From contig JBAXKC010000040.1 in NCBI GenBank assembly GCA_037137535.1, positions 1 to 22,617 of the forward strand: a stretch of 22,617 nucleotides of DNA, given 5' to 3'. The DNA comes from a bacterium. GTDB lineage: Bacteria; Cyanobacteriota; Vampirovibrionia; Gastranaerophilales; JBAXKC01. The notes under the pieces were generated by a model. It was given only the letters and a program-made list of their open reading frames with translations. It did no database searches and had not been told where the DNA came from. The translations under genes were made by a program, and so were the position numbers. Shown here one piece after another: positions 10,282 through 16,317 of this stretch. The first letter of the stretch is position 1. Each line of letters opens with the position of its first letter.

Positions 10282-12768
10282 TCACTTCTTAAGCGTATGT
10301 AAAAACTTTTCCATTTCCGTTTGTTGATCGGTCGAAATCTCATTTTTATCGATAAAATTCATAGGGTCGTTAAGCTCGTTTATAGCTTCCATTACACCGA
10401 TTTTGCCCGATACTTTCTGGATTGAGGTAAAAAACGATTCAACTGCATAGTTAAAACCGTAGCTGATAAGCGAAAACGGAACCATGACAAGGGAAGAAAT
10501 CCCCATTAATCCGCCAATGACTGTTGCGGTTAAGCCAATAGGGTATCTTAAGTTTTCATTGTCAGGATTATAAATATGCTTTGGAATGGCCCTTATATCG
10601 TCATTCAAGGATTTTAGATATTTTTTAACAAGACTGTTTTTCGTGATAGTTTGATAGAACGGATTATCTTGAACCTTTTTAAGAACCTCTCCGCCTTTTA
10701 TAAAGTTGTAAAAGTTGTTAGTAGAAGCATTTTTCGTAATATGGGCGTCAATATCTTTTGTTAATGAGCCTAATGCCGTTTCAACCTCAGGCAGGGAGAA
10801 TTTTGTTTCTTTAAAATTTTTCATAAAAGCAATTAAGTCGATTAAGCTCGAAATGCTTTTATTATCTGACCTTATGATGTTATAAAGAGCTCTTTTCGCC
10901 TTATGCTCGCTTGAAATAGGTGTTAACATCTTGATAAACATTTCAGTAAAGGCTTTTGCGTTTTCATTATTCTTTAATAAATCTTTCAGTTCTTTTTTAT
11001 AAGCCTCTTTGCAGGTTTTATGGAAAGCTAAAGCTCCCTCTACGCAAGCTTTAAGCTCCTCACTGTTAAACTTTTCGGGATTTTTCCTATATGCAGCAAT
11101 AATCTTGTCTATTTCGGGGAAGGACTTTGAAATACCACCTATAACAGTATTTTTAGGAGTTTCCGACATTCCGCCTATTAATTCTAAAAAGGCAGGAAGA
11201 TTTTTGGAGATTTTTTCATAAGAATTCAGCAAGTTAATTTTAATATTTTCATCATTTTTAAATAAATTTTTTGCAATAAAGCCCGTAAATTTTTCTTTAG
11301 TAAGCAGTTTTGTTTTGATTAATACAACTCCGACTCCAGCAGTCAAGGCAGTAGTTACAAGCGGTAAAAACTTCTTTAATCCTCTGACAAATTCGGTAGC
11401 AAACTCCATATCTTCTGAATACTCTTGAGAGCGGTCGTCAACCTTTTCAAAAGATTTGAATAGCTTATGTTGAAGCCCTTTTGCACTTTCAAGCTGTCCA
11501 GTTTTAATCTTAGACTTTTTCAGCTCTTCCATAAGTGCCTTTTCAGCAGGCAAAATGTTCTTTTTATAGTCGTTATATGCCTTAAAGTCTTTCCTTGAAG
11601 TAAATAAGAACTTCATATCATCAACAAAATCAGCAAAGAAAGACTTATTTTTTTCCTTTTTAGCTTTTATATTCGGTGCTGCTTCAAGTTCTTTATCCGT
11701 AAGAGAAATAAAATTTTTCGGGTCTGATAATAATTCCTGTTTAACCTTATAACGACCGACTTGAGCGGATTTAATCTTTATATTTTGAGCAATCATAATT
11801 TCTGTAAGAAATCCGCCTGCAAAAAACGCACCACCTACAAGAGGAGCAAGAATTTTATTCGCATCACCAGGTAATTTAACCAGTTTAGATATTCCCATAC
11901 CAGCTAAAGCCCCTAATCCTGCAAACAGTCCGTCTGCAATAAAGCCCATTCCCAAAAATGCACTTGTAGCAGACTCAATATTCTCTGAAAAATCCTCTGC
12001 TTCATTATTAATACGCTTTATAACCCTTAAAATAGTTTCTTTTTCACGCTCTGCCTTGATAAGCTGTTCGGGTGTAACTTTTATTGATTTTATAGCAGAC
12101 ATATCTTTTTCATCTTCGACGGAACGCTTTTCTATAAACTCTTTAAACGTTTTTTTATCTTTCAGTAATTTTGAAAAATACCCAAAAGCCTCAACAGGAT
12201 TCTGAAAAACGCTGTCTTTCTCGGCTATAAGCTTAACACCACTAGCCTCTAAACGTTTTTTTGCTTCTGCAAGCTGTTCATCATCATATAAAATAAAATT
12301 TTTAGGATCGCTTAACTCGTTTTGCCTTGCACTTTCTCTAGCCATCTTTGAAGCAAATACCTGTTGCGAAGTAGCCCAAGCGTTTGCAACCATCATTATT
12401 GGCGTTGTCATTACGCTTAAAAGTATTCCCTGACCCGCACTATTTGCCTTAGAAGCAACACCACCCTTAAAACCTTTTAACATAAGAACCGCTAACGGCA
12501 ATGTAAACGCCTGCATACCAATTGAAACCAGTGTTCCTGTTGCGGTTTCTGTTTTGGTAGCTGATTCTTCAGATTTTCCGTCCATGATATTTATTGCATT
12601 TATAATAGTTTTTCCGAATTTATCCGCATTAGTCAAGTCTCCTTGTGAAATAGGACGATTATTCACGAGATAAGCCCTTTTAGCATCCTTATCCCGCTGT
12701 TCTTCTTCCCATTTATTATATTTAGGGGCATCTTTTGCAACCGTACGAAGTGTATTAATTATTTGCAT
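10282..12768 (-). CDS. Large (828 aa) membrane protein with three bilobed hydrophobic hairpins and a repeated ELxDPxNFI motif; Inc-like/vacuolar-membrane effector-like architecture
   Basis: Paired hydrophobic segments (LVSIGMQAFTLPLAVLML + GILLSVMTTPIMMVANAWA; AFLGMGFIADGLFAGLGALAGMGI + LAPLVGGAFFAGGFLTEIMIA; LTATVIGGLMGISSLVMVPFSLISYGF). Each is followed by ELSDPKNFI / ELLSDPKNFI / ELNDPMNFI. Long charged coiled-coil-like linkers. RBS taggga. Confidence 0.75.
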   Translation of the reverse strand: MQIINTLRTVAKDAPKYNKWEEEQRDKDAKRAYLVNNRPISQGDLTNADKFGKTIINAINIMDGKSEESATKTETATGTLVSIGMQAFTLPLAVLMLKGFKGGVASKANSAGQGILLSVMTTPIMMVANAWATSQQVFASKMARESARQNELSDPKNFILYDDEQLAEAKKRLEASGVKLIAEKDSVFQNPVEAFGYFSKLLKDKKTFKEFIEKRSVEDEKDMSAIKSIKVTPEQLIKAEREKETILRVIKRINNEAEDFSENIESATSAFLGMGFIADGLFAGLGALAGMGISKLVKLPGDANKILAPLVGGAFFAGGFLTEIMIAQNIKIKSAQVGRYKVKQELLSDPKNFISLTDKELEAAPNIKAKKEKNKSFFADFVDDMKFLFTSRKDFKAYNDYKKNILPAEKALMEELKKSKIKTGQLESAKGLQHKLFKSFEKVDDRSQEYSEDMEFATEFVRGLKKFLPLVTTALTAGVGVVLIKTKLLTKEKFTGFIAKNLFKNDENIKINLLNSYEKISKNLPAFLELIGGMSETPKNTVIGGISKSFPEIDKIIAAYRKNPEKFNSEELKACVEGALAFHKTCKEAYKKELKDLLKNNENAKAFTEMFIKMLTPISSEHKAKRALYNIIRSDNKSISSLIDLIAFMKNFKETKFSLPEVETALGSLTKDIDAHITKNASTNNFYNFIKGGEVLKKVQDNPFYQTITKNSLVKKYLKSLNDDIRAIPKHIYNPDNENLRYPIGLTATVIGGLMGISSLVMVPFSLISYGFNYAVESFFTSIQKVSGKIGVMEAINELNDPMNFIDKNEISTDQQTEMEKFLHTLKK

Positions 12769-12915
12769 ATTTGTTCCCTAAAAAATATCATTTATTGGTT
12801 TTTCAACATGTATATAAACATAATAATATAAACTTAATTGTCAAAAATTAAGGACATGTTACAAAATATTTTCAATTAGCTCGTAATTGCGAGTAAAGCT
12901 AAGCAATCTAAAAAT

Positions 12916-13135
12916 CATAGGGTTTTCACCTATAAATTCTCTTTGTTCCTATAACATCTCAATGCCTAAAGCCCTCGACTTCCTTTTTATTTTTCAAAAA
13001 ATAAAAGGGAAGCAAAAACAAAAACTTTGCGAGTTCTTGACCACTACCGGCTTATTTTCTTACCCTTTGAGTTGTTTTACACAAAACTATTTTGAGAAAA
13101 GCTGCAAACCGCTCGTTTGTGACGGTTCTTGGTTC
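12916..13135 (+). repeat. Copy D, full-length member of the structured repeat family
   Basis: Aligns to 7893-8121. Palindrome cctttttatttttcaaaaaataaaagg at ~12982-13008. The 3' module carries gcttattttcttac ... agaaaagctgc. It lies in the divergent region between 10282..12768 and kup. The 101-aa track ORF 12887..13192 lies across it and is judged spurious. Confidence 0.8.
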
Positions 13136-13286
13136 AAGATTTTGCAAAAATCGGATTTTATACAGAATAACACAAAACAAACAAAAGCATAAACTCTTCA
13201 ATCCCTGTTATTTCATTACATTTTTCAAATTAATATTTCTTAAATATTGCCCTAAAACTTTGCTTTTATAAATCTTTAATCATAAT

Positions 13287-13342
13287 ATGAGCATGAGAGC
13301 TGAAAGCTCTCACTATGTTTGGGATAAAGTGAGAAAATAGCA
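13287..13342 (+). promoter_or_regulatory. kup leader: 17-codon uORF (MSMRAESSHYVWDKVRK) ending 2 nt before the kup ATG, with two mutually exclusive hairpins
   Basis: gagagct-gaa-agctctc (perfect 7-bp stem) overlaps tctcact-(13 nt)-agtgaga. The second stem covers the probable kup SD (agtgaga). The uORF stop TAG is followed by ca then the ATG. Confidence 0.3.
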
Positions 13343-15154
13343 ATGTATAACAAAGAGGACATTGGAAATATCGTAAAGTCTATGGGACTCGTTTTCGGCG
13401 ACATCGGAACCAGCCCTATATATACCTTTACAGTAATATTTCTTTTAATTCACCCTAATCTTCAAAACGTCATGGGAATCTTATCATTGATTTTCTGGAC
13501 GTTCATGATTCTTGTAACACTTGAATATGCTGTGTTAGCAATGAGTTTAAGCAAAAAAGGCGAAGGCGGAACGGTTGTTCTAAGAGAAATCCTTGTGCCA
13601 CTCCTTAAAGACAGGAAATCAATCCTGTTTATTACAATTCTATCATATGTAGGCGTTTCCTTACTTATGGGCGATGGAGTAATAACCCCTGCCATCAGCA
13701 TTTTGAGTGCGGTGGAAGGTATGCGTTTAATCCCCGGCTGGGCAACAGTTCCTCAGACTTGGCTAATCGCAACAGCGGCAATAATTGCAATCGGGCTTTT
13801 TTCAATACAAAGAAAAGGAACGGAAAAAGTCGCAAACGCTTTTGGTCCGCTAATGGTGATATGGTTTACCACGTTATCAGTGTCAGGGCTTTATTATATA
13901 GCTAAAGCACCTTACATTTTAAAGGCTATAAACCCTTATTACGCAATTCAATTCTTTATGCACAACGGACTGGAAGGTTTTATAATCCTTTCAGCTGTAA
14001 TTCTTTGTGCGACAGGAGGAGAAGCCTTATATGCAGATATGGGACATCTTGGAAGAGTACCAGTTTCAAGAGCATGGTATATCGTGTTTTTTGCCCTTGT
14101 TTTAAATTATTTCGGGCAAGGTGCTTTCCTAATGATAAATCCACACGCTAAAAACATTCTTTTTGAAATGTTATTCAGCGAATCTAAGTTTTTATACGTT
14201 CCTTTCCTTGTTTTAAGTATCATTGCAACTGTTATTGCATCTCAAGCTATGATAAGCGGTATGTTTTCAGTTGTTTATCAAGGTATAACCACAAGAATAA
14301 TGCCACTCTTCAAAGTTGACTACACCTCTCCCGAGCTGAGAGCACAAATTTACATTGGTTTTGTCAATTGGTTCTTATTAGCTTTCGTGTTGATTGTAAT
14401 GTTCATCTTTAAAGAATCCAACAACCTTGCAGCGGCTTATGGGCTTGCTGTCACAGGAACAATGACAATTACGGGAATTATGATGATCTGGATTTTCAAA
14501 ATCAAAAAACAACCTATCAAAGCCTTTTTATCAGTAATTGTTTTAATAGCTGATTTAGCTTTTTTAATTGCAAATATGCATAAAATCCCTAGTGGTGGCT
14601 ATTGGTCAATTATTATCGCCGCTATTCCAATGGCGATAATATTAATTTACACCAACGGCCAGAGAATGCTTTATAGAGCGTTAAAACCGATTGGTCAGGA
14701 GAATTTCTTAAACCAATATGAAGCAAAATACAAAGAGGCTTACAGAATAAGAGAAACAGCTCTTTTCTTAATTAAAGACCCTCGCCAGATACCGCCTTAT
14801 GTCGTTAGTACAATGTTTGGTAACGGTATTATTTATGAAGACAATATTTTTGTCTCTGTAAACATTACTGATCACCCATACGGCACTTCCTACGAGTTTA
14901 AAGACAACCTAGGCACAGGTTTAAGGTATTTTGTAATAAATATCGGATATATGGAAGTTATTGACGTTGAGAAAATCCTCAAAGAAGCGCAGATTAACGA
15001 AAAAGTTATCTTCTACGGACTGGAAGAGATTATTACAGACAATATAATCTGGAAAATCTTCTCCTTCATTAAGAAAAATACCCCTGCCTTCGTTCAATTC
15101 TACGCACTGCCGTCAAATAAACTTCATGGCGTTATTACAAGAGTTGAAATATAA
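13343..15154 (+). CDS. kup: KUP/HAK/KT family potassium uptake protein
   Basis: N-terminal GDIGTSPIYTF signature. ~12 TM segments followed by a cytoplasmic C-terminal domain. 603 aa, typical for the family. Confidence 0.9.
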   Translation: MYNKEDIGNIVKSMGLVFGDIGTSPIYTFTVIFLLIHPNLQNVMGILSLIFWTFMILVTLEYAVLAMSLSKKGEGGTVVLREILVPLLKDRKSILFITILSYVGVSLLMGDGVITPAISILSAVEGMRLIPGWATVPQTWLIATAAIIAIGLFSIQRKGTEKVANAFGPLMVIWFTTLSVSGLYYIAKAPYILKAINPYYAIQFFMHNGLEGFIILSAVILCATGGEALYADMGHLGRVPVSRAWYIVFFALVLNYFGQGAFLMINPHAKNILFEMLFSESKFLYVPFLVLSIIATVIASQAMISGMFSVVYQGITTRIMPLFKVDYTSPELRAQIYIGFVNWFLLAFVLIVMFIFKESNNLAAAYGLAVTGTMTITGIMMIWIFKIKKQPIKAFLSVIVLIADLAFLIANMHKIPSGGYWSIIIAAIPMAIILIYTNGQRMLYRALKPIGQENFLNQYEAKYKEAYRIRETALFLIKDPRQIPPYVVSTMFGNGIIYEDNIFVSVNITDHPYGTSYEFKDNLGTGLRYFVINIGYMEVIDVEKILKEAQINEKVIFYGLEEIITDNIIWKIFSFIKKNTPAFVQFYALPSNKLHGVITRVEI

Positions 15155-15175
15155 TCAGATAATTTTTCATTAAAA

Positions 15176-15204
15176 AAGGCTTTCTCTTAAAGAAAGCCTT
15201 TTTT
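15176..15204. terminator. Bidirectional Rho-independent terminator shared by convergent kup and 15203..15868
   Basis: aaggctttct-cttaa-agaaagcc stem, flanked by an A-run upstream and a T-run downstream. Confidence 0.65.
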
Positions 15205-15868
15205 AATTGATATGTTCTGCTAAAACTGGTAAAACATCAAGTAAACCCTCAAGAATCTCTGAAGCGTTATCTATAAAAAAGTTACTTTTATGTTTTTCAA
15301 TATTAACAAGAGGCTTATTAACATCAGTTTTTCTATCTGCAAAACATTCTAAAAACTCTTCATCTGATGAAGGAGTTAATTTTATATTTAATCGCTCAAA
15401 CTCTTCTTTAGACAACTTACCGTCTTTATATTCTTTCTCTAAAAGCTTTATCAAGCCTTTTTTCTCGGCAACTTTAAGATTAGTCGGAATCATAGCTTCC
15501 ACTTTTGACGCAACATTTGTTATAGGCTCATTTTTTTGAATTTTTAGTAATTCTTTTATGCGTGATTCTGATAACTCGGGCAAAACCTTTTCAGCGTTAT
15601 TCCCCGAACGCTGAAACAACTTTGCAAAAAATATCCTTGATTTATTAAAGCAAAGTACCAAGGCACACCCTACTGCAAACAATCCCGCTTTTTGCACAAA
15701 CGTACTTTTTTTCCTTGTATGATGATGTTTTACTCTTTTAAATTCATCTTTTTCAGACTGAGTCTTATCATAATTAACAGTAGGCTTATTAACCTTATTA
15801 TCAATAGTTTTTATCTGTTTCTTTACTTCAGGTAATTTAAAATTAGAAAGATTTGTATTCTGAACCAT
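15203..15868 (-). CDS. Hypothetical protein with a single TM segment (AGLFAVGCALVLCF) and Lys/Glu-rich regions
   Basis: ORF with RBS aaagga. Ends in the bidirectional terminator. No recognisable domain. Confidence 0.6.
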   Translation of the reverse strand: MVQNTNLSNFKLPEVKKQIKTIDNKVNKPTVNYDKTQSEKDEFKRVKHHHTRKKSTFVQKAGLFAVGCALVLCFNKSRIFFAKLFQRSGNNAEKVLPELSESRIKELLKIQKNEPITNVASKVEAMIPTNLKVAEKKGLIKLLEKEYKDGKLSKEEFERLNIKLTPSSDEEFLECFADRKTDVNKPLVNIEKHKSNFFIDNASEILEGLLDVLPVLAEHIN

Positions 15869-16010
15869 TTAAAATTCCTTTGAGAAAAGTTCAACACCCA
15901 AAATATTAAAACAATACGTTTAATAAAATTGTCAAATTATTACAAAAATATAACTATTTAGTCTCTAAACTCTATTTTAATAAATAATTACTAAAAAGCA
16001 AAGATATAAC

Positions 16011-16136
16011 CATGAGGTTGTCACCTATAATTTCTCTTCGTTGCTGTACTATGTCGATGTCTAAAGCCATCGACATCCTTTTTGTTTTTTAAAAAACAAA
16101 AAGGATGCAAAAACAAAAACTTCTGGGTGATGGGGA
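16011..16136 (+). repeat. Copy E of the structured repeat family (5' module only)
   Basis: catgaggttgtcacctataatttctcttcgtt..., hairpin tcgatgtctaaagccatcga, and a perfect palindrome cctttttgttttttaaaaaacaaaaagg with compensatory a-to-g and t-to-c changes relative to other copies. Ends after gcaaaaacaaaaac. Confidence 0.8.
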
Positions 16137-16317
16137 TTTAGTTGCGGTTTTTTAATTGTTTAAATATCAACTATAATAAGGCTCGCCGGTTCTACTTTTA
16201 ATTAAAATATTATATGAAGATTAATATAATATAAAACATAAAAATTCAAGCAACAAATATTTTTGCCGCTTAATTTTCTGTTTTTTACTTTTTTCTTAGC
16301 GATAAAAGCTCTATCCG

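Follow-up and report, generated by a model that had tools for sequence, protein, structure and literature searches.

Paired changes in a palindromic module of a bacterial intergenic repeat: a hairpin that shifts in sequence, loop and spacing, with templating as a proposed explanation

The AT-rich palindrome described here is one module (M3) of a modular intergenic repeat, and comparison of its copies shows that M3 has the evolution of a hairpin, its arms remaining complementary as the sequence, the loop and the distance between half-sites shift. In one copy of the repeat (copy E) the palindrome is perfect and carries substitutions matched on both arms, a pattern that templating explains at least as well as selection. 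The repeat is approximately 250 nt long and is present in six copies on a contig of 22,617 nt (locus tags WCK67_...), the whole of which was analyzed and is called the window below.

The GC content of the contig is about 32% and its Kup protein is 64–69% identical to proteins of Candidatus Melainabacteria / Gastranaerophilales MAGs. The host is an uncultured bacterium and is probably related to Melainabacteria, a placement that is taken from this one gene. Within these 22.6 kb, all six copies of the repeat are intergenic and both strands are used. On the 5′ side, copies C, D, E and F each adjoin a divergent gene with its start codon 100–170 nt away, and the gene map contains no same-strand gene reading into any of these four copies. 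Downstream, copies either have no gene on the same strand or are followed by genes unrelated to one another (an MFS transporter, Kup, an ORFan). An ORF of 828 aa (10282–12768, minus strand), divergent from the region of copy D, has no Pfam or NCBIfam match. Two ORFan paralogues of 408 and 402 aa (1430–2656 and 16318–17526, both on the minus strand) are 38% identical, with a strongly conserved C-terminal half, and do not match Pfam or NCBIfam either. Three more members of this family were found among 5.8 billion proteins, all of them from the same MAG (WCK67_12420, WCK67_12415 and WCK67_10450); it is a lineage-restricted ORFan family.

The repeat is built of modules M1 to M6. M1 is a variable 5′ part of two types, one common to copies C and F and the other to D and E. 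M2 is a short GC-containing hairpin (TCGATG-tctgaagc-CATCGA), and M3 is the AT-rich hairpin, 21–35 nt in length, found in five copies in the window and two elsewhere, all intergenic. They are followed by an A-rich linker (M4, GCAAAAACAAAAAC), a hairpin spanning about 57 nt (M5; outer stem of 13 bp, GCTTCTTTTCTTA / TGAGAAAAGAAGC) and a T-rich tail (M6). Copies C, D and F are full length. Copy C (7883–8132, plus strand) has M2 at 7959–7978 and M3 at 7982–8008, with a perfect 11-bp core followed by a T.G pair and mismatches. In copy D (12886–13153, plus strand), M2 (12959–12978) is decayed by two mismatches and M3 (12979–13012) has 16 pairs including one T.G. In copy F (17605–17850, minus strand), M2 lies at 17775–17794 and M3 (17748–17774) lacks 7 central nt, leaving 10 perfect bp. 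Copy E (15996–16144, plus strand) comprises a type II M1, M2, M3, M4 and a remnant of M6; exactly the M5 hairpin is deleted. Homology of copy B (6062–6233, minus strand) starts from M3 (6207–6233, with an unpaired G); this copy lacks M1 and M2 and retains M4 to M6. Copy A (59–200, plus strand) consists of M4 to M6 only, with its M5 hairpin at 96–152, and has no palindrome.

No match to the Rfam 15 covariance models (E values up to 1) overlaps any of these copies. Terminal inverted repeats are absent from the element as a whole; complementarity between M4 and M6 is confined to copies A (16/20) and B (12/14), in sequence of low complexity, and no consistent target duplication was found in the copy flanks. 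The family most resembles REP, BOX or MITE-type repeats, as it is exclusively intergenic, lies in either orientation, mixes its modules, decays and breaks k-mer assemblies. That it is mobile we infer only from the copy number and from the presence or absence of the repeat at orthologous loci; a transposase (in about 65 kb), terminal inverted repeats and target duplications were looked for and not found. The literature yielded no described repeat family for the Melainabacteria-like lineage, and the present one appears to be undescribed.

Two copies outside the window were obtained by protein-anchored look-ups, other contigs of the MAG being reached only as short Logan or ENA versions. A search with the 408/402-aa paralogues led to a Logan contig from the MAG's own run (L184), which holds the M2–M3 unit alone (5925–5989) between two convergent genes, each with its own terminator. 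A full homologous element was found at about 4255–4530 on a JGI contig of a related species (L120), whose Kup is 80% identical. No clear element was seen at the orthologous Kup loci of three further relatives (L121, L122 and L186); the repeat can thus be present or absent at orthologous Kup loci. On L122, an imperfect hairpin with an AT core (5960–6020) lies between two co-directional genes and has the strings CTTTTTGTTTTTTA and CAAAAAGGGATG in common with copy E. Either a distant relationship to M3 or a coincidence in low-complexity sequence could account for it; since the homology is doubtful, the hairpin was left uncounted. Scanning genome contigs with GGAWGCAAAAACAAAAAC gave chance single matches among the matches listed, none of which holds the element. 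Specific patterns had no match in metagenome contigs, one of these patterns being able to match L120 and four of the window copies. Viral contigs scanned with the patterns gave chance matches or none, and blastn against a phage collection found no match. The contigs of the relatives are also short. On two of them (L120, 2010–5877; L121, 2062–3725) a CHAP-domain gene comes after Kup, together with small ORFs and a Terminase_3 gene, a prophage-like arrangement, and on L120 the homologous repeat is directly upstream of the terminase gene.

The bases at 16077–16104, cctttttGttttttaaaaaaCaaaaagg, were re-read and agree with those given in a preliminary description of this DNA, which had also correctly recognized a paired a-to-g and t-to-c change in copy E. 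It had understated the dyad symmetry: the M3 of copy E is a perfect AT-rich palindrome of 34 nt on the plus strand (CATCCTTTTTGTTTTTTAAAAAACAAAAAGGATG, 16074–16107) with 17-bp arms and no spacer, including a G:C pair and an A:T outer pair. Two pairs are altered on both sides, A:T to G:C and T:A to A:T (CATCC/GGATG versus CTTCC/GGAAG in D), and one extra A equalises the arm lengths. The 27-mer that was said to be carried by most copies is exact only in C; D is one base off, B and F differ by more, and A has no palindrome. A search allowing three mismatches returned three sites (7982–8008, exact; 12982–13008, one mismatch; and the E site) where 0.00 were expected, and diverged versions lie on the minus strand at 17748–17774 (F) and 6207–6233 (B). 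Nor is this supposedly canonical 27-mer a perfect dyad: a run of five T in its left arm faces four A in the right one, so that the arms of C and D can pair only by way of a T.G wobble or a bulge. Two further statements were accurate. Copy D (12982–13008) differs from C solely by a central T-to-C change in the loop, and copy F carries a shortened perfect palindrome (17751–17771, 10-bp arms), a shape that needs no selection because any central deletion in a palindrome gives it.

Such symmetry is exceptional for this DNA. Nine perfect hairpins whose arms reach 10 bp or more were counted in the window, compared with a mean of 0.59 in shuffled sequences, and four of the nine are M3 copies. A perfect 17-bp arm was absent from 100 dinucleotide shuffles, in which the longest arm was 15 bp. 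Between E and C/D, 8–10 differences were counted over 44 aligned flank positions and M3 diverges about equally (approximately 18%), showing that its sequence is not conserved, only its symmetry. If substitutions were independent and occurred at flank divergence, the probability that 17 of 17 pairs stay Watson-Crick with at least two of them altered on both sides would be about 5e-5 (1e-5 to 6e-5 when the model is run at d = 0.05–0.25). Independent neutral drift is therefore rejected for copy E, which bears out the earlier remark that paired changes of this kind are not expected under it.

Comparison of M3 among eight copies, seven of which contain the palindrome (B to F, L184 and L120; A has no M3). 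Pairs are read outward from the loop and the RNA folding energies (dG, kcal/mol) are compared with those of shuffled sequences. Copy E has 17 Watson-Crick pairs and no loop (0 nt; dG -16.2, z -6.8). Copy D has 10 pairs, a T.G and 5 pairs around a 2-nt loop (dG -13.8, z -5.2). L184 forms 15 pairs with a loop of 5 nt (dG -18.8, z -7.5) and L120 forms 13 pairs with a loop of 7 nt (dG -8.2, z -3.3). Copy F: 10 pairs, a C.A and 2 pairs, 1-nt loop (dG -7.0, z -2.7). Copy C: 11 pairs, a T.G, 1 pair, then mismatches, 0-nt loop (dG -6.6, z -1.9). Copy B: 6 pairs, a G.A (or a bulged extra G), 4 pairs, a T.G and 1 pair, 1-nt loop (dG -3.4, z -0.55, not different from shuffles).

Complementarity thus persists in five of the seven palindromes, B and C being decayed; the extra G in the left arm of B is unpaired and leaves a hairpin no more stable than shuffled sequence. 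In the M3 of L120 one pair is altered on both sides (CC/GG to AC/GT), and in that of L184 at least four pairs are altered on both sides and three new pairs are added. The outer 8 bp of the L184 stem (CGGCAATG/CATTGCCG) are complementary, yet their sequence is unrelated to the canonical CTTCC/GGAAG. The spacing of the half-sites differs by up to 14 nt among copies, given the loops of 0, 1 or 2 nt, the 7 nt removed in F, the 7-nt loop of L120 and the 5-nt loop of L184. Changes confined to one arm were also found: the extra G in B, the asymmetry of the T5/A4 runs in C and D, and an outer-stem C.A mismatch in F and C. Over the seven palindromes, most substitutions are paired, yet indels in one arm occur about as often as paired substitutions do. 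Since it is intra-strand complementarity and not sequence that persists, in L184 and L120 as well, a hairpin is the right level of description; M2 and M5 show comparable behaviour. The hairpin part of the earlier proposal of a selected hairpin is upheld in this way, L184 and L120 still being paired with different loops and outer pairs. Selection does not follow, in view of the two decayed palindromes of seven, the single-arm indels, the deletion in F and the arrangement of the changes in E.

In the right arm of copy E, all three differences (T to C at 16097, the extra A, A to T at 16105) fall within a single uninterrupted block of 9–10 nt, 16097–16105, which is the exact reverse complement of the left arm at 16075–16084. 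Such a block fits quasipalindrome template switching, because a single switch leaves a contiguous reverse-complement footprint, and it matches the templated palindromic mechanism that had been offered earlier as an alternative. In E. coli, quasipalindromes are corrected to perfect palindromes by template switching (PMC7202029), and template switching creates multi-base “compensatory” changes and perfect stems (PMC8794818). In copy E, one arm that already had two substitutions would have served as template for the opposite arm during replication, and a single switch would have fixed all mismatches and the indel together, giving a perfect palindrome. Weak selection in favour of a hairpin that can fold may be superimposed on the templating. 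Both hairpins of E, M2 as well as M3, look polished, a second feature that favours templating over four or five separate selected substitutions. In L184, the M3 stem runs into a sequence that is the 3′ arm of M2 elsewhere and the M2 hairpin is destroyed; this overlap also points to templating, because copying an arm from whatever stands opposite would produce it. The ancestral states, and hence the direction and number of events in E, are those we infer from five paralogous palindromes of the window and two distant ones. On this footing we tentatively propose, with confidence that falls a little short of even, that templating, possibly with weak selection on top, explains the paired changes of copy E. 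The likeness to the published cases (PMC7202029, PMC8794818) lies in the passage from imperfect to perfect repeat, in the block on one arm that is the reverse complement of the other, and in the resemblance to compensatory substitution. Those cases differ in that they come from reporter genes or tree-reconstructed ancestors, whereas the ancestor here is deduced from five paralogous copies.

Classical compensatory evolution predicts the same end state. M3 would then be the stem of a functional small RNA or UTR element on the plus strand, kept by purifying selection through two separate substitutions per pair. Pairing is indeed kept across species despite other loops and closing pairs: in M2, M3 and M5 it survives between-species divergence. 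The inner pairs of M2 are rewritten in L120, and its stem is broken in D and L184. Three pairs of M5 are altered on both sides, a number reached by 0 of 500 shuffles, and 90% of its cells are paired, against 54–58% with slid partners. A U.G is conserved in six of six M5 hairpins, which corresponds to a C.A mismatch on the opposite strand, and T.G is tolerated on the plus strand in the M3 of C and D; these wobbles hint at a constraint on plus-strand RNA, for which a purely mutational model has no need. Copy F as a whole folds better than shuffles (z = -3.4). The same comparison speaks against selection on several counts: no Rfam family was matched and no consistent promoter was found across copies, M3 is decayed in B and C and M2 in D and L184, modules are freely gained and lost (A, B, E and L184), and the downstream genes are unrelated or there is no same-strand one. 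In copy E itself, the symmetry continues through the centre without a loop, which an RNA stem does not need, and the changes are clustered, contiguous and present in that one copy, the other window copies having none. Selection of this classical kind is a possible but doubtful source of the paired changes.

Any function of M3 would most probably be exerted in RNA, jointly with M2, as a portable terminator or insulator hairpin, a role that the data support weakly. The M2 of copy E (16051–16076, plus strand; ATGTCGATG-tctaaagc-CATCGACAT) forms 9 bp, compared with 6 bp in copies C and F, and with the T-run that comes after it resembles an intrinsic terminator. Its CAT at 16074–16076 pairs with ATG at 16051–16053, which brings M2 to 9 bp, and with ATG at 16105–16107, which extends M3. 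A scan for terminator-like structures flags M2 and its T-run in C, E and F; in E the T-run TTTTTGTTTTTT begins within 2 nt of the 9-bp stem, and in C and F the 6-bp stem is followed by five non-T bases. As in intrinsic terminators, the M2 hairpin precedes a T-rich stretch, the left arm of M3. Unlike in these, no same-strand gene ends upstream of copies C to F, a 5-nt spacer intervenes in C and F, and the A-rich right arm has no role. None of copies C to F was found at the same-strand 3′ end of a transcription unit, in L184 the gene's own terminator precedes the copy, and the ordinary terminators of the genome are GC stems flanked by A and T tracts, unlike M2–M3. Three other roles were considered and rejected. 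A sigma-70 promoter in M2–M3 (TCGACT-16-AAAAAT) scores 8/12, below the scan threshold, and its -10 box, judged by eye, is destroyed in E. A hairpin sequestering the SD or acting as RNA thermometer has no start codon at a suitable distance. For a small type I toxin ORF in M5, the reading frame is broken at different positions in B, D and F and lacks a conserved start; the M5 changes of L120 preserve the stem, not codons.

A broader proposal, which we consider unlikely, takes M2–M3 and M4–M6 as two parts of an undescribed family of mobile structured elements of Melainabacteria-like bacteria, the hairpins of which would be read as ssDNA by an unknown HUH-type enzyme, or would belong to a multi-copy small RNA, while being continually re-templated. 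If true, it would provide a natural system for watching template-switch stem repair in the wild.

In a narrower form, M2–M3 would be an ssDNA hairpin signal for an HUH/Y1 enzyme of the REP/RAYT or IS200/IS605 type, or an insertion target, its hairpins being needed for mobilisation or processing. The two adjacent hairpins with conserved structure and variable sequence would suit such a signal, as would the presence or absence of the repeat at orthologous Kup loci and the ability of M4–M6 to stand alone, with weakly complementary ends in A and B. Three of the eight copies also have a homology breakpoint at or beside M3: homology begins at M3 in B, stops at M3 in L184 and begins immediately past it in A. 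M3 is therefore a module junction or fragile site as well. We nevertheless hold this reading to be distinctly unlikely: the window and the related loci (about 65 kb) contain no Y1, HUH or other transposase, no conserved GTAG-type guide motif stands beside M2 or M3, and there are no clear terminal inverted repeats or target duplications. An integron attC site or cassette array was rejected, the copies lying on both strands among housekeeping genes and GTTCTTGA not fitting GTTRRRY.

Very improbable is a duplex site for a dimeric DNA-binding protein, a recombination core or a cruciform site, in which two subunits would read the half-sites. Copies C and E are perfect or near-perfect dyads without spacer, a T6A6 core is easily melted or kinked, and homology breakpoints cluster at M3. 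Against this, the half-sites vary both in spacing, by up to 14 nt, and in sequence (the G:C pair of E, the wholly different outer arms of L184), and a protein that reads bases would not tolerate an A:T to G:C change in both halves combined with variable spacing. Loop, half-site spacing and outer pairs all differ among copies, as suits a hairpin formed within a single strand, and the protein-binding or recombination site envisaged in the preliminary description is disfavoured.

Chance or an assembly artefact, for instance an inverted chimera at the repeat, is barely credible: short-read assemblies do break at these palindromes and short dyads are common in AT-rich sequence of low complexity, but the 17-bp arm and the nine hairpins exceed what shuffles produce, the flanks of E (M2 on the left, M4 on the right) are in normal order, collinear with the other copies and without mirror images, and a Logan contig from a second assembly of the same run (L001) has identical bases up to 16103.

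Among known repeats, REP and BIME sequences are likewise short imperfect palindromes (M3 lies within their 20–40 nt), intergenic and in both orientations; their structure is conserved above their sequence, their copies decay and they are often clustered with other repeat modules. They differ in having a 5′ GTAG-type motif and a cognate RAYT transposase, neither of which was found here in about 65 kb, and the present element combines four hairpins in about 250 nt. The BOX (boxA-boxB-boxC), RUP and SPRITE repeats of Streptococcus pneumoniae (PMC3049150) are similarly modular, with variable combinations and numbers, intergenic and AT-rich with stable predicted folds, and are probably included, untranslated, in the transcripts of their neighbours. 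Their sequences are not similar to the present element, and BOX and RUP have terminal inverted repeats and target duplications, whereas weak M4/M6 complementarity in two copies is what is seen here. Unlike MITEs, the whole element is devoid of terminal inverted repeats.

Covariation is usually taken as proof of selection on a stem. For palindromes in repeat families this is unsafe, because a single replication event with templating produces the same result, and a deletion in the centre automatically leaves the palindrome perfect. In addition, the repeat breaks short-read assemblies of this lineage, which is of practical concern for binning and annotating such genomes. In other respects it is a bacterial intergenic repeat of an ordinary kind, from a lineage that has been little studied.

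Contig L001, which covers 12975–16103 of the window, breaks off next to the copy D palindrome at one end and within the copy E palindrome at the other. Farther along the window, two tandem ORFan paralogues (19836–21230 and 21493–22614) are 74% identical and were co-duplicated with a downstream terminator hairpin, AAAACGCTTCGGAAATAACCGAAGCGTTTT; hairpins near this pair lie at 19262–19291, 19758–19794 and 21454–21485. A protein search with the pair found no homologue besides themselves, the first being also represented by a 99% identical partial copy in an ENA assembly, and a search with the 464-aa family returned no further paralogues. A second small REP-like motif, ATTGCGAG-N4-GC-N-AAGCAATC, is itself an inverted repeat and is located at the 5′ edge of copy D (12886–12908). 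On L120 it is present at 3724–3746, about 3775–3800, 4270–4300 and 4520–4555, including an inverted pair, and contig L121 ends inside it.
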